Origin: Terriglobia bacterium | Lineage (GTDB): Bacteria; Acidobacteriota; Terriglobia; Acidiferrales; UBA7541 | DNA: 64,000 bases | Direction of reading: 5' to 3' | Assembly: GCA_963695545.1 (NCBI GenBank) | Contig: OY968796.1 | Location: 1,760,001 to 1,824,000, forward strand | Notes under the pieces: generated by a model | Seen by the model: only the letters and a program-made list of their open reading frames with translations | Database searches by the model: none | What the model was told of the DNA's origin: nothing | In this document: piece by piece, positions 6,665 through 13,181 of the stretch | How positions within the stretch are numbered: position 1 is the stretch's first letter | Layout: every line of letters starts with the position of its first letter | Made by a program: the position numbers and the translations under genes

Positions 6665-7118
6665 TCTCACCTCGCGCGCTATCCGCGGATCGTTCGCAGT
6701 GTACGGCAGAGCCGCGAGCCGCACAACAGCCCCCGCGCGCTCACGCGTCGCGCCTCCGCCCCATGCCCCAAATCGGGCAATGCCGCGGCTGCGCACCATC
6801 GCGCCCCAAGCCTGGCCGCCGCCGCGCCTCTCCCGGCCATTGCTTTTGCAGGACTTAACTGCGCTCCCGGCGTACTCACGCCCCGCCCCGGCACGGAAAC
6901 TCTTACGTCACCCACGCCTTCCCAAAAGGGCCTAGAGGTACTAAACTGTGCGACTCAGTAGGGGGCCCCGGGCACCTCCCGCCGACCGGCGGAGGGTGTG
7001 TTCATTGATCCTTTCCGGGCCTGTCGAGCATCTTAGTTTCTTTAGGGTTTGCTGTGGCTGTAGGGACCTCGGTTGCCATACCGAGTCCAAAACTAAGTAC
7101 AGTTGGAGCGCCAAGCGC

Positions 7119-8798
7119 ATGAGTGGTAAACCAATCGTACTGACTGCGTGCGATTCCGAATCCAACGAATATCTCCGAAGCACCTGGCGCCAAATGTTGC
7201 TGGCGACTTTGCCGGCGCGTTACGCGAAATATATCGGCACCAATTGGTCCGTAAAGAACGAAGTCGCGCCCGACGGCCGCGCTAAATACGTTCCGCACGG
7301 CCTGCGCGTCGTCGAATCGCTGCTGCTCAACGGCAACTTCACCGCCGACGATGTGGTCGTCTGCTACCCCGATCAGTTTGAGCAGTTCATCGGTGACGAT
7401 ACGCGCGTCGTCGGCGTGCACGCGCACAATCCGCTCGGCATCACCTTCGCCACCGACGTCTACGCCTATCTCTATGGCAGCACCATCGAGCCCATCAACG
7501 CCATGGAGTTCCGCCGCTTGATCGAGCATCCCGTGCTGCGCCGCCACAAGCCGCACCTAAAACTCATCGTCGGCGGCCCCGGCGCGTGGCAAATCGAAAA
7601 GAAAAATCTTCAGGACGCCTGGCAAGTCGATTGCCTCGTGCACGGCGAAGCCGAAGATCTGGTCGGCCCGCTGTTTGAATCCGCCTATCGCGGCGAGGAA
7701 ATTCCGCGCAGCCTCACCGGCAAAAGCCCGTCGCTCGATAAAATTCCGCGCATTCACCATCGCTCCACGTTCGGCGCCGTGGAAATCACGCGCGGCTGCG
7801 GACGCGGTTGCCAGTTCTGCAGCGTCGCGCTGCGCAAAGGCAAAAGCATTCCGCTCGCGCACATCCTGGACAACGTCCGCGTGCAAGTCGCCGAAGGCGC
7901 GGACACCATCCTGCTCACCACCGAGGATATTTTCCTCTACGAGCAGGGCCCGAAATTCAAAACCAACGTTCCCGCGCTCAAGCGCCTGCTCGATTCCGTC
8001 GCCGGCGTGCCCGGCGTGAAATACATCATGCTCACGCACGGCACTATCGCGCCCGCCGTCATCGAGCCTGAAGTGATCGCCGAACTTTCCGAAGTCGCCG
8101 TCGGCTACAGCGTGAATAAGCACGCCGATTCCACGCATCCGGATAAACGCTACGCCAATCTCTTCATCGGCCTTGAGACCGGCTCCACGCGCCTCTTCGA
8201 TCAGCACATGAAGGGCAAGGCCTATCCGTATCGCTCGCAGCAGTGGCCCGAAGTCGTGATGAAGGGCATGAACACGCTGAACAAGCACAATTGGTTCCCC
8301 TTCTGCACGTTCATTCTCGGCTTGCCCGGCGAGACGCGCCAGGACACGCGCGAATCGCTTGATCTGCTCTACGCGCTCAAAGGCTCAAAGTGGTGCGTGA
8401 TCCCCACGCTCTTCGTCCCGCTCGAGGAAACGCGCCTCGAGAAAAAAGCCGGCGCCAAGCTCGTCGAGCTCACCGACCTGCAGTGGGAATTTTTCTTCAC
8501 CTGCTGGCGCTACAATCTCGATTTCTATCATCGCGATCCGTCGCTGCGCTGGAAGTTCAGCCTCGGCATTCCGCTCTACTACTACATGCTCGGCCGCAAA
8601 CTTTTCGGCCGCGAAATGAAGTATCCGCTCTTGCGCCTGGGCCATTTCCCCGAATGGTTCCTGCGTCGCAAGCTCTATCTCGATTTCTCGAATGGCGACG
8701 AGGCCAAATATCACGTCCCCGAGCACGTCCCCGTGCCCGAGGATCGCATGCGCCCCGCCCTGCCTGACGTCGATGGCCACGGCCTGGTCGTTCTCTAG
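7119..8798 (+). CDS. B12-binding/radical SAM protein resembling the GDGT ring synthase (GrsA/B) family
   Basis: EITRGCGRGCQFC (CxxxCxxC), IVGGPGAWQ, GEAE, IGLETGS and FILGLPGET motifs; N-terminal DGR..P.GLR.VE and EPIN..FR segments recalled from the Grs family; GGAG RBS before ATG 7119. Confidence 0.85.
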   Translation: MSGKPIVLTACDSESNEYLRSTWRQMLLATLPARYAKYIGTNWSVKNEVAPDGRAKYVPHGLRVVESLLLNGNFTADDVVVCYPDQFEQFIGDDTRVVGVHAHNPLGITFATDVYAYLYGSTIEPINAMEFRRLIEHPVLRRHKPHLKLIVGGPGAWQIEKKNLQDAWQVDCLVHGEAEDLVGPLFESAYRGEEIPRSLTGKSPSLDKIPRIHHRSTFGAVEITRGCGRGCQFCSVALRKGKSIPLAHILDNVRVQVAEGADTILLTTEDIFLYEQGPKFKTNVPALKRLLDSVAGVPGVKYIMLTHGTIAPAVIEPEVIAELSEVAVGYSVNKHADSTHPDKRYANLFIGLETGSTRLFDQHMKGKAYPYRSQQWPEVVMKGMNTLNKHNWFPFCTFILGLPGETRQDTRESLDLLYALKGSKWCVIPTLFVPLEETRLEKKAGAKLVELTDLQWEFFFTCWRYNLDFYHRDPSLRWKFSLGIPLYYYMLGRKLFGREMKYPLLRLGHFPEWFLRRKLYLDFSNGDEAKYHVPEHVPVPEDRMRPALPDVDGHGLVVL

Positions 8799-8836: not shown

Positions 8837-8873
8837 GTAGGGACGGGGGTCGCCGCGGCGACCCTCCGCCCGC
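8837..8873 (+). repeat. GTAG-type REP-like palindrome
   Basis: gtag followed by an imperfect GC-rich hairpin containing gggtcgcc-gc-ggcgaccc. Confidence 0.55.
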
Positions 8874-9092: not shown

Positions 9093-9392
9093 ATGAACAT
9101 CACCAAACTTTGCAGCCGAGTGATTCTCACGACTGCATTGGCCGGCGGTCTGGCATTAGCCGTAGGAGCGCCGATCAACGCGGAACCCGACTATAGCAAC
9201 GCCTGTCATCAGCGCCTCGAAAACGATCGCGCCCGCATCGACCACGAAGCCGCGCGCCACGGCGAACACAGTCCACAGGTTGCCCATGCCGTTGACCGCA
9301 TGGATCAGGATCGTCAATGGTGCCGCGACCATCACTCCGATTGGGATCACACCCGCTTTGACGTCGGCATCTATTTCCGTCCAGGCCACTAA
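9093..9392 (+). CDS. Small secreted His/Asp-rich hypothetical protein, paralog 1
   Basis: GGAGG RBS, ATG 9093, signal peptide ending INA; two Cys; aligns end to end with 9789-10082. Confidence 0.85.
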   Translation: MNITKLCSRVILTTALAGGLALAVGAPINAEPDYSNACHQRLENDRARIDHEAARHGEHSPQVAHAVDRMDQDRQWCRDHHSDWDHTRFDVGIYFRPGH

Positions 9393-9788: not shown

Positions 9789-10082
9789 ATGAAAAGCACC
9801 AAGCTTTTAAGCCGAATTCTCTTCACCACCGCGCTCGCCGGCGGATTGGCATTAGCTGTCGGAACTCCAATCAACGCGGAACCCGACTACAGTAACGCTT
9901 GTCATCAGCGTCTCCAGAACGACAAGGCCCGCATTGACCACGACGCCGCCCGCCACGGCAACGACAGTCCCCAGGTCCAGCACGACGTCGCCCGCATGGA
10001 CACCGACCGCCAATGGTGCCGCGATCACAAAGCCGATTGGGACCACAGCACCTTCGACATCGGCATCTACATACATAAATAG
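9789..10082 (+). CDS. Small secreted His/Asp-rich hypothetical protein, paralog 2
   Basis: AGGAGG RBS, ATG 9789; shares AEPDYSNACHQRL..D.ARIDH.AARHG..SPQV.H.V.RMD.DRQWCRDH..DWDH..FD.GIY with paralog 1. Confidence 0.85.
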   Translation: MKSTKLLSRILFTTALAGGLALAVGTPINAEPDYSNACHQRLQNDKARIDHDAARHGNDSPQVQHDVARMDTDRQWCRDHKADWDHSTFDIGIYIHK

Positions 10083-10768: not shown

Positions 10769-11614
10769 GTGGCACGAAAACGCACTCAGCCCGCGTCCCA
10801 ACTGAGTCATGACGAAGAATACTTTGAGACATTGGCCGGAGCTCTCCGTGTATGCGCGAAATACAAACCGATGTTCGGCCAAGGAAGAGCCGGTGGCGGA
10901 ATGACGCTAGAGCAATTTCGTCAATTGTACGGGTCTGATCCGTTCTACAGCTGGATCGGCATGGATTCACCGATGATGTACGCCGCTCACAAGGCGGCGG
11001 GAGGTATGACCTCGATTTACAGGCAAGTCGGAATCGGAGCACAGTGGATTTTCAACAAGGTGTTGCAACACACGCTTGGACTGTCAGCAGAACAAGCAGC
11101 GTGGGTCTACGAAGTCCCAAAAACAGGCGTGGGAACCAGAAAGCTGTCACTTGACGGCAGGATTGAGGTCCGCGATATTGCGGACGTGAACGCAAAGCGA
11201 CGAGTCCAAAACTGGATCAACAGTGGACTGAAAAGGGTTCTCGTTGATCCAGCGGCCGCGAGCGCTCCCAAGATGGGCGCCGTGTTCGAAGTTCGTCAGG
11301 GATACAAGAGCAAGGACTCCAAACGTCAGAACGCCGACCTTGCCAACGCCGCCAGCGCCTACGTTGAAGGCTATATGCCGGTTGTCGTGTTACTCTCGAC
11401 CCAGATAGACGGGGACGTCGCAATGCGCTACACCGAGGCTCGTTGGCTGTTGTTGACGGGAACGAAAGCAGGAAGCACGGTCGAGAGCACATATGCCTTT
11501 TGCCGAGACGTTCTCGGCTACGATCTCGCGGCGTTCTTTGAGCGCAACTCCGCGCGCTTCAAAGGCGAGATTGAAAAGGTGCTGACAGCACTATTGAAAC
11601 CCGATGGCAAGTAG
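10769..11614 (+). CDS. Putative type II restriction endonuclease (PD-(D/E)xK-like)
   Basis: LDGR...FEVR acidic motif; overlaps the methyltransferase gene by 11 nt; visibly lower GC than the flanking genes. Confidence 0.7.
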   Translation: MARKRTQPASQLSHDEEYFETLAGALRVCAKYKPMFGQGRAGGGMTLEQFRQLYGSDPFYSWIGMDSPMMYAAHKAAGGMTSIYRQVGIGAQWIFNKVLQHTLGLSAEQAAWVYEVPKTGVGTRKLSLDGRIEVRDIADVNAKRRVQNWINSGLKRVLVDPAAASAPKMGAVFEVRQGYKSKDSKRQNADLANAASAYVEGYMPVVVLLSTQIDGDVAMRYTEARWLLLTGTKAGSTVESTYAFCRDVLGYDLAAFFERNSARFKGEIEKVLTALLKPDGK

Positions 11615-12854
11615 AGCCTCAACCGCAGTCCAACGTCTCGATCACCTCACTCACCGGGGCAACACGAAGTACACCCGATACGGATGGCTGCGACTGACGC
11701 CCGCGTTCTCTATACATCTAATCCTTGATCTCGTAAGGTCCCTGCCGACCGATGCTCGCGTCCTTGATCCGTTCTGCGGAACGGGCACAACCGCGCTTGT
11801 ATGCGCAGAGGAAGGCGTGGACTGTGACACGGCCGACATCAATCCGTTCTTGCTGTGGCTGGCCTCCGCAAAGACTGCCAACTACTCCAGACAGGAAATC
11901 GAGGCCGCCAAGAACGGCGCAGAACAGATCACGGTGGCGCTGCGAAACCGAAACGGGAAAACGGCCTCTTGGTACCCTCCACTGTTTAACATCGAAAAGT
12001 GGTGGGACGGCCCGATTCTGGAACGACTAGGCAAGATCAGGTCGATGATCGAAGATCAAGCAACGCAGCTAGGCCCGCAGGCCACGACACTGCTCAAAGT
12101 TTCCTTTTGCCGAGTGGTGATCGAGCTAGCGAATGTGAGTTTCGGGCATCAGTCGATGTCTTTTAAGAAGCCGCAAACCCAGATGGTGCTGCAAATTTTG
12201 ACCGACGCGACCGAAACAGTCGCGGATAAATGGCTCGAGACCACAAACAGCATACTTCAGGCCGCTCAGACACACATCCAGACCAAGCCGAACTGTTTGC
12301 CCTGTGACGCACGGAGCTTGACCGACACTTTTGCGCGAGCGAGCTTTGATTGTGTCATCACCTCACCGCCGTACCCAAACAGAATGAGCTATATACGCGA
12401 ACTTCGTCCCTATATGTACTGGCTCGGTTATCTGTACGATGCGCGCCAAGCCGGCGAACTCGACTGGAAAGCAATCGGAGGGACCTGGGGTTGCGCGACA
12501 AGCAACCTCAATGCGTGGCAAGCACCTGAATCAGGAATCCCGTTCTCAGAATTCGGGTCAATCCTGGCCCGAATTTCCAAGTCGAGCGGGCTGCTTTCCC
12601 GTTATGTCCACAAGTATTTCTGCGACATGGCGGTTCACGTTCGAGAATTGTTCGAGGTTGTGAAGCCCGGCGGAACTGTGCACTACATCGTGGGCAACTC
12701 GAAATTCTACGACGTCTTGTTGCCGGTGGAGCAGATATTCACATGCCTGTTCGAGCATGCCGGATTCGTGGATGCAAACTACACCGTTGTCCGAAAACGA
12801 ACGTCGAAGAAAGAATTGTTTGAATACGACGTCACCGCGACAAAACCGCTCTGA
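11604..12854 (+). CDS. Site-specific DNA amino-methyltransferase, probably N4-cytosine, alpha motif order
   Basis: Motif I VLDPFCGTGTT near the N-terminus; motif IV ITSPPY well downstream. Confidence 0.88.
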   Translation: MASRASTAVQRLDHLTHRGNTKYTRYGWLRLTPAFSIHLILDLVRSLPTDARVLDPFCGTGTTALVCAEEGVDCDTADINPFLLWLASAKTANYSRQEIEAAKNGAEQITVALRNRNGKTASWYPPLFNIEKWWDGPILERLGKIRSMIEDQATQLGPQATTLLKVSFCRVVIELANVSFGHQSMSFKKPQTQMVLQILTDATETVADKWLETTNSILQAAQTHIQTKPNCLPCDARSLTDTFARASFDCVITSPPYPNRMSYIRELRPYMYWLGYLYDARQAGELDWKAIGGTWGCATSNLNAWQAPESGIPFSEFGSILARISKSSGLLSRYVHKYFCDMAVHVRELFEVVKPGGTVHYIVGNSKFYDVLLPVEQIFTCLFEHAGFVDANYTVVRKRTSKKELFEYDVTATKPL

Positions 12855-12882: not shown

Positions 12883-13181
12883 ATTCGAATAGCTCATTAA
12901 TTTACATTGACACACAAGTACAGTTCGTGCTAAGCTTCTGAATGTACGCCGAACACATCATCCGTTTTTTCGCCCCCAACCCTTCTAGAATCAATACTTC
13001 TGAAAAATCGCATTTTAAACCTTTTAGAATCACCAGTTCTGGCGCAAAGGACTTAAAGTCGTTCAGAATCAGCACTTCCAAAAAACACCCGGGGGGGAGG
13101 GGGGTACCCGCCCTCCATGTATCGGTTTTTTCGATCGTCGCCGCGGCGGTGGCTTTCGTAGCGGAGGCCTTCAGGCCTCCA
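12883..13181 (+). mobile_element. Dispersed promoter-bearing repeat element, copy A (putative non-autonomous element or ncRNA unit)
   Basis: TTGACA(12907)-N18-TAAGCT(12931), ATG 12942, three AGAATCA units at 39-bp period, aaaaacacccgggg, terminal 24-bp GTAG hairpin identical to 51191-51214. Confidence 0.55.

Follow-up and report, generated by a model that had tools for sequence, protein, structure and literature searches.

The closest described relatives of the protein analyzed here are two GDGT ring synthases from archaea, GrsA (Saci_1585, Q4J8I0; P0423 in our set) and GrsB (Saci_0240, Q4JC22; P0432) of Sulfolobus acidocaldarius, which served as reference sequences under accessions that agree with those in PMC13023045 and PMC10087280. 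Other enzymes that tailor tetraether lipids, namely Gmm, Cgm, Pgm, Ted, and Gms, are also radical SAM proteins, like the one described below; the first four share its B12 architecture, while Gms, unlike it, is of the SPASM/Twitch type. Cyclization of branched GDGTs (brGDGTs) underlies the CBT soil-pH proxy, and culture work suggests that shifts in the community may be behind this signal (PMC10087280). The idea that acidobacterial Grs homologs are ring synthases is already in print, where it is called unverified (PMC10087280; 10.1101/2022.08.15.504015; PMC13023045). Solibacter usitatus makes cyclized brGDGTs and has a Grs homolog, and its Acid_5783 (Q01UE0) is a published candidate brGDGT ring synthase (PMC10087280, Fig. 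S13); four hot-spring Acidobacteriae MAGs carry Grs homologs nested among archaeal sequences (Blum et al., 10.1101/2022.08.15.504015). Our literature search, outside which most subscription geochemistry journals lay, found neither a functional test of a bacterial Grs nor an identified brGDGT-cyclizing enzyme. The literature covered also included PMC11868695, 10.1101/2022.04.07.487437, 10.1101/2023.10.20.563219, PMC11214058, and PMC12107092.

The window, that is, the whole stretch of 64,000 nucleotides that was analyzed, comes from a Terriglobia bacterium whose genome (G000, the host genome below) is a single contig (C1) of 4.16 Mb, 93.8% complete. On its forward strand at 7119..8798 lies a Grs-family radical SAM gene, one open frame from ATG 7119 to TAG 8798 encoding 559 amino acids (P0001). 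A longer start, GTG 6948, is available in the same frame; ATG 7119 is preferred because homologs begin at this ATG and because GGAG, judged from sequence a possible ribosome-binding site, is found at 7105..7108 (+), 10 nt 5′ of it. A GC-rich inverted repeat (I6) followed by a T run at 8840..8871 (+) is a possible terminator; it is absent from the list of the terminator scan, and no promoter or terminator hit in the window exceeds those of shuffled sequence. The gene is single copy in the host genome and stands alone, with a cytochrome c gene on one side and two small genes lacking annotation on the other, and no link to lipids was found for its immediate neighbors (the cytochrome c, the two small proteins, and a methyltransferase). 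Among 8000 scored sequences, 2421 are close homologs at E 1e-20, those with a name being from Acidobacteriota; the host shares its class with a family of which one protein bears the name Bryobacteraceae. Related sequences appear in peat RNA contigs, two runs spanning 29/30 and 26/30 bins, mostly at 85-99% identity, and a third 5/30; these sequences belong to relatives and need not mean that the gene itself is transcribed. Four strong DNA matches all come from one soil study, which may be its source.

We also noticed several features further along the window. A small gene is duplicated in tandem at 9093-9392 and 9789-10082 (77% identical DNA across 281 nt, at a spacing of 696); its product of 97-99 aa is probably secreted and has no Pfam match, and a similar hairpin lies 3′ of each copy. 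At 10769-12854, a 281-aa gene with no Pfam match overlaps a DNA methyltransferase gene, and the two resemble a type II restriction-modification pair. A near-identical stretch at 12942-13055 and at C1 near 2099850 is common to the translations of two ORF extensions and is probably a dispersed non-coding repeat.

Compared with the references, P0001 shares 28% identity with GrsA (466 columns) and 31% with GrsB (445 columns), with E values of 1e-52 and 3e-67 that are far beyond chance. The best matches are reciprocal, since among the ORFs of the host genome GrsA (E 1.6e-48) and GrsB (5e-63) find only P0001 strongly. With 215 and 174 bits on the two references, as against 203 bits and 31% identity between GrsA and GrsB, P0001 is as near to either of them as these two are to each other. 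The other 16 of the 18 radical SAM proteins of the Sulfolobus genome give at most 35 bits with P0001, among them the methylase-type B12 enzyme (L184; 31 bits, E 0.11), which its genome and gene order lead us to take for Cgm. All 35 Sulfolobaceae genomes have a match. A published Grs screen (10.1101/2022.08.15.504015) asks, for GrsA as well as for GrsB, at least 70% coverage, at least 20% identity, and an E value no worse than 1e-40, together with a length of at least 400 aa; P0001, at 559 aa, passes with 90%, 27.7%, and 1.6e-48 with GrsA and 80%, 30.8%, and 5e-63 with GrsB, the E values being for one proteome.

The architecture is also that of Grs as given in PMC13459092, with a CxxxCxxC barrel, an N-terminal Rossmann-like domain, and C-terminal helices. 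The partial radical SAM barrel (roughly residues 217-435; 7767..8423, +) is defined by Pfam, the structural model, and conservation, and the Pfam Radical_SAM match (residues 221-417, E 1e-13) encloses the CxxxCxxC motif for the [4Fe-4S]-SAM cluster (C227/C231/C234; 7797..7820, +), invariant in 129 aligned rows; the barrel also contains GLETGS (351-356) and GLPGE (401-405). Upstream of it, about residues 1-205 (7119..7733, +) form a Rossmann-like domain that is predicted from the model, fold match, and conservation to bind cobalamin and that contains GGPGAWQ (152-158) and DCLVHGEAE (171-179). Residues conserved in at least 95% of 133 family rows are L8, P59, R63, E66, G152, G153, W157, Q158, D171, G176, G219, E222, C227, C231, and C234. 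The initial annotation had pointed to a CxxxCxxC motif preceded by a B12-binding-like domain and to a series of motifs like those of Grs proteins; the CxxxCxxC motif is there, behind a predicted cobalamin-binding domain, and the whole series is present in order, two of its members being one or two residues off in their spacing. No Pfam B12-binding match is found in P0001, and likewise none in GrsA or GrsB; the three agree in full-length homology, motifs, and Pfam profile.

The AlphaFold model, built with 129 aligned rows, has a pLDDT of 93.7, and its best fold match is MgmA, a radical SAM enzyme of the cobalamin type (Z 22.8, rmsd 3.8, 359 aligned, residues 5-505), followed by MiaB/RimO (about 18), AprD4, CysS, TsrM, OxsB, and TokK. 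P0001 is predicted to bind cobalamin; its modeled fold fits cobalamin enzymes but also MiaB/RimO. The aromatic-rich C-terminal helices of the model (residues 453-507; 8475..8639, +), the region that varies most between subfamilies, contain no transmembrane segment (maximum hydropathy 1.2); they are likely to contact lipid or membrane by analogy to the Grs C-terminal helix described in the review PMC13459092. P0001 is set apart from GrsA and GrsB by its separate clade, by a barrel insert of about 10 residues, and by the greater length of its C-terminus; it also has H-N-P at a site that reads x-D-P in most archaeal rows. A fatty-acid-derived rather than an isoprenoid substrate would be expected for it, because its host is a bacterium.

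Phylogenetic trees of 94, 133, and 44 rows were built with fragments shorter than about 430-440 aa left out of all of them; the 44-row tree was computed under LG+G4 with no mixture model. P0001 falls inside the Grs family, in a 42-row clade supported at 100/100 with 2 outgroup rows and in an 86-row clade supported at 98 with 8 outgroup rows, which bears out the likeness to GrsA and GrsB proposed at the outset. L184, the one methylase-type sequence compared, falls in the outgroup. The acidobacterial sequences form one clade (100) in all three trees, within a third Grs group, "third clade" being meant relative to the GrsA and GrsB clades in trees whose rows do not include Cmaq_1853 and TK0167, the names attached to the GrsB′ (Caldivirga/Vulcanisaeta) and GrsA′ clades in 10.1101/2025.10.20.683597. 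AU tests reject a union of P0001 with GrsA (p 6.2e-9) and with GrsB (p 1.8e-5), even though GrsB is its better BLAST match. P0001 is therefore orthologous to neither GrsA nor GrsB; it belongs to an acidobacterial branch of a third Grs clade, of which no characterized member was found in the literature. The archaeal members of this clade are 35-41% identical to P0001 and carry the names Bathyarchaeota, Desulfurococcaceae, Korarchaeota, Thermoprotei, and Lokiarchaeota. In the best trees, archaeal rows surround the acidobacterial clade (94/100 and 93/88); a placement of this clade as sister to the whole rest of the Grs family is not rejected by the AU test (p 0.23), and we therefore claim no donor and no transfer from archaea to bacteria.

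The host genome was examined for genes of the lipids on which such an enzyme could act. It has a Tes homolog some 125 kb away from the P0001 gene, at C1:1893062-1895275, which matches the solved Tes structure 7TOL at E 2e-59 and is the best match of archaeal Tes; it lies below the NCBIfam NF045702 cut-off (318 of 450 bits). A conserved cluster at C1:1584911-1596824 (L116) holds a HAD and fatty-acyl reductase gene, a second reductase, a pyruvyl-transferase-like gene, two acyl-CoA ligases, an enoyl-CoA hydratase, a lipid kinase, and an acyltransferase; homocitrate-synthase- and isocitrate-dehydrogenase-like genes precede it. Together with a ligase-carrier-acyltransferase gene at C1:1340393-1343023, the cluster resembles the ElbD domains (PMC10087280); by itself it looks like a split elb ether-lipid route. 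The PlsA/Ger domain DUF2229 was not found in the 93.8% complete genome. A membrane-spanning lipid pathway had been named as something to look for, and the Tes homolog and elb-like genes are what the genome offers; the host presumably makes such lipids.

Across a sample of 301 genomes of the phylum (one being G023, on which nothing else here depends), a grs-like gene occurs in 38 (12 type 1 and 28 type 2 as defined below, two having both) and a Tes-like gene in 182. Tes is present in 38/38 grs-like-positive genomes (35 at E 1e-190 or better), and grs-like genes are found in 0/119 Tes-negative ones. This overlap is necessary rather than strong evidence, because related genomes are not independent and an unrelated, non-Grs B12 radical SAM family shows a like pattern, with 54/54 carriers Tes-positive. 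The grs-like gene is patchy, occurring in 17/151 genomes of the order, 12/141 of the host's family, and 65/201 of family f4; family f3 has Tes in 24/24 and a grs-like gene in 0/24. Among 53 chosen gene-positive genomes, 12 have DUF2229 and 29 reductase/ElbD-like genes, 38 have either and 15 neither; in some of them, therefore, the enzyme's substrate may carry ester links. Koribacter, which has Tes only, makes tetraesters (PMC13023045, PMC13274423).

Gene neighborhoods in relatives also support the cyclization idea. Most grs-like genes stand alone, a panel gene lying within 1.5 kb of 6/37 type-1 genes and at 2/39 type-2 loci. In one genome (G273) the order is an elbD-like gene (ligase-carrier-acyltransferase), a radical SAM gene, tes, the grs-like gene, a crystallin-domain gene, and two fatty-acyl-reductase genes. 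In two genomes of one genus (G625 and G524), tes, a SPASM radical SAM gene, the grs-like gene, and a radical SAM gene are contiguous on one strand, and in two members of the host's family (G345 and G335) the grs-like gene sits inside a reductase/acyl-CoA-ligase elb-like cluster, whose counterpart in the host, L116, does not contain it; these four loci were widened because their flanks already had matches. The recurring neighbors of acidobacterial-clade genes are fatty-acyl and tes genes.

Other observations were made in the same loci. The SPASM radical SAM gene between tes and the grs-like gene (L275:7380-8639, 420 aa) has no close homolog in the host genome, and its homolog also flanks a grs-like gene in G143; it may be Gms, a bacterial GMGT synthase, and Gms clusters with tes in Acidobacteria. 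Archaeal sister genes adjoin methylase-type B12 enzymes in three loci; in L282:7635-13923 and L283:5402-9925 the sister Grs-like gene is followed by the methylase-type B12 radical SAM gene and a conserved 369-aa gene with no Pfam match, and in L282 a geranylgeranyl-reductase-like gene comes next. One bacterial genome (G048), which also has a type-2 grs-like gene, carries a distant Grs-like gene (29%) that lies directly upstream of a polyprenyl synthase fused to DUF116 (L086:5482-8882).

On this evidence we consider it reasonably probable that P0001 is a cobalamin-dependent radical SAM ring synthase for the branched membrane-spanning lipids of its host. What was observed is family membership, the fold, intact motifs, the Tes and elb-like genes, and the gene-cluster links in relatives; cobalamin binding, the substrate, the ring chemistry, and the presence of such lipids in the host are predictions. 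In the proposed reaction, the substrate would be the lipids formed after Tes joins two iso-branched chains tail to tail. The ring of brGDGTs arises from mid-chain methyls of the iso-diabolic chain, and the 13,16-dimethyl chain of iso-diabolic lipids would supply such methyls here. Two SAM cleavages at the C227/C231/C234 cluster would remove one hydrogen from a mid-chain methyl and another from the methylene four carbons away, with the first radical possibly held or oxidized by cobalamin; the product would be a cyclopentane ring, as in brGDGT Ib/Ic-type lipids or ester or mixed analogues. The two-route radical chemistry is taken from proposals made for GrsA and GrsB in PMC13459092.

Of the three activities initially suggested, to cyclize, cross-link, or methylate membrane-spanning lipids, cyclization is thus the best supported, cross-linking, the work of the SPASM-type Gms, finds no support, and methylation stays as a rival. 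A different reaction on the same lipids, C5/C6 methylation or desaturation, is in our view rather unlikely. The Tes overlap and the synteny would suit any lipid-tailoring step, the top fold match MgmA is itself a methylase, methylation or desaturation of GDGTs is known from homologous B12 enzymes (10.1101/2025.10.20.683597), and no identified brGDGT methylase was found in the literature. An identity of 28-31% leaves function unfixed in this superfamily, which counts against the ring-synthase reading; the desaturase Ted was found among methylase homologs. Against the rival, the characterized Grs members found in the literature (GrsA, GrsB, and TK0167) are ring synthases, the methylase-type enzyme compared is remote from P0001, and the host could methylate with other B12 radical SAM candidates of its genome, including a family that likewise tracks Tes.

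These other candidates deserve a short description. Two paralogous non-Grs B12-binding radical SAM genes at C1:281581-283236 (L001) and C1:3905615-3907261 (L007) belong to the family found in 54/301 phylum genomes, all Tes-positive, and a member lies directly upstream of the type-2 grs-like gene in G360; judged by sequence, they are candidates for the C5/C6 methylase of branched tetraethers. A 734-aa B12-type radical SAM protein (C1:3515059-3517263, L003) matches no family above cut-off, and a gene 50% identical to it adjoins the type-2a grs-like gene in G675, which makes it a second methylase candidate. Two unassigned radical SAM genes at C1:446547-447617 (L008) and C1:802157-803431 (L004) have homologs in the tes clusters of G273 (62%) and G625/G524 (51%) and are possible further lipid-tailoring enzymes.

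That P0001 instead tailors an isoprenoid, either a polyprenoid or a hopanoid, appears improbable. Archaeal Grs substrates are isoprenoid chains, the host has the hopanoid genes HpnH and HpnJ over cut-off, and within the phylum, in G048, a bacterial Grs-like gene does adjoin a polyprenyl synthase. However, that terpene-linked type is a separate branch only 29% identical to P0001, with P0236 and P0263, GC-rich rows similar to it, also falling apart from P0001, and no squalene-hopene-cyclase or polyprenyl-synthase homolog was found near acidobacterial-clade genes (0/78 narrow and 0/40 wide loci). A non-lipid function (tRNA or protein modification) or a dispensable relic, as might be read from the automatic names (YgiQ-like or MiaB family, with the ESM Atlas clusters all MiaB-named), the weak matches to MiaB/RimO models and folds, and the patchy occurrence in the host's family, is similarly improbable, given that NCBIfam scores stay far from the cut-offs (79 of 251 bits at best), that the host has its own MiaB/RimO/MtaB-type genes, that the frame is intact with a mean identity of 64% across type 1, and that the gene lies in lipid clusters of several lineages.

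Within the ring-synthase reading, the division of the acidobacterial clade has to be considered. It splits into type 1 (36 rows, including P0001), type 2a (9 rows), and type 2b (31 rows), the latter two being 42% and 37% identical to type 1. Both types occur together in six genomes (G291, G210, G360, G423, G505, and G526), which suggests two jobs and would also suit a methylase or desaturase as one of them. By the published figures for Acid_5783 (coverage of 75% for GrsA and 84% for GrsB, with E values near 1e-37 and 1e-39; PMC10087280), this protein is probably of type 2b, hence a paralog about 37% identical to P0001; the assignment is indirect and comes from the coverage figures, which are matched exactly by 16/30 type-2b rows and by 0/36 type-1 and 0/9 type-2a rows. 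Acid_5783 was not among the best 120 of 3196 matches of a type-2b query, and a literature search on its locus tag returned 0 papers. S. usitatus is like the present host in having an acidobacterial Grs homolog in a Tes-bearing genome, and differs in having PlsA; as Acid_5783 fits the other type, the lipids of Solibacter may not speak for P0001. The hot-spring MAG homologs, with at least 87% cover and 27% identity to GrsA and at least 78% and 30% to GrsB (10.1101/2022.08.15.504015), compare with 90%/28% and 80%/31% for P0001 and are probably of the type 1 subfamily. The available text of that account covers neither synteny, Tes overlap, nor a paralog split, and P0001 comes from soil-type samples. 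No account of two acidobacterial Grs paralog types was found in the literature, where bioRxiv supplements may hold Grs trees that show both types or join the third clade to GrsB′.

A tentative extension, which we regard as somewhat doubtful, is that the two Grs paralogs of Acidobacteria diverged long ago and serve different functions, as GrsA and GrsB do in archaea. Type 1, the one that occurs next to tes and within ether-lipid clusters, would close a ring elsewhere, act on a different class of lipids (tetraesters or ethers of the elb route), or make the second ring, and the Solibacter type would do the rest. If so, since either type is present in only about a fifth of Tes-bearing genomes, the environmental cyclization index would follow the distribution of the two types over lineages, and the pH proxy would be a community signal readable from metagenomes. 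The candidate family itself was known; what is added here is its genomic support from tes and elb-like clusters, its placement in a third clade, and the two paralog types, both of which need tests. If confirmed, a bacterial ring synthase would provide a gene marker for producers of cyclized brGDGTs and would mean that Grs chemistry acts on fatty-acid-derived chains.
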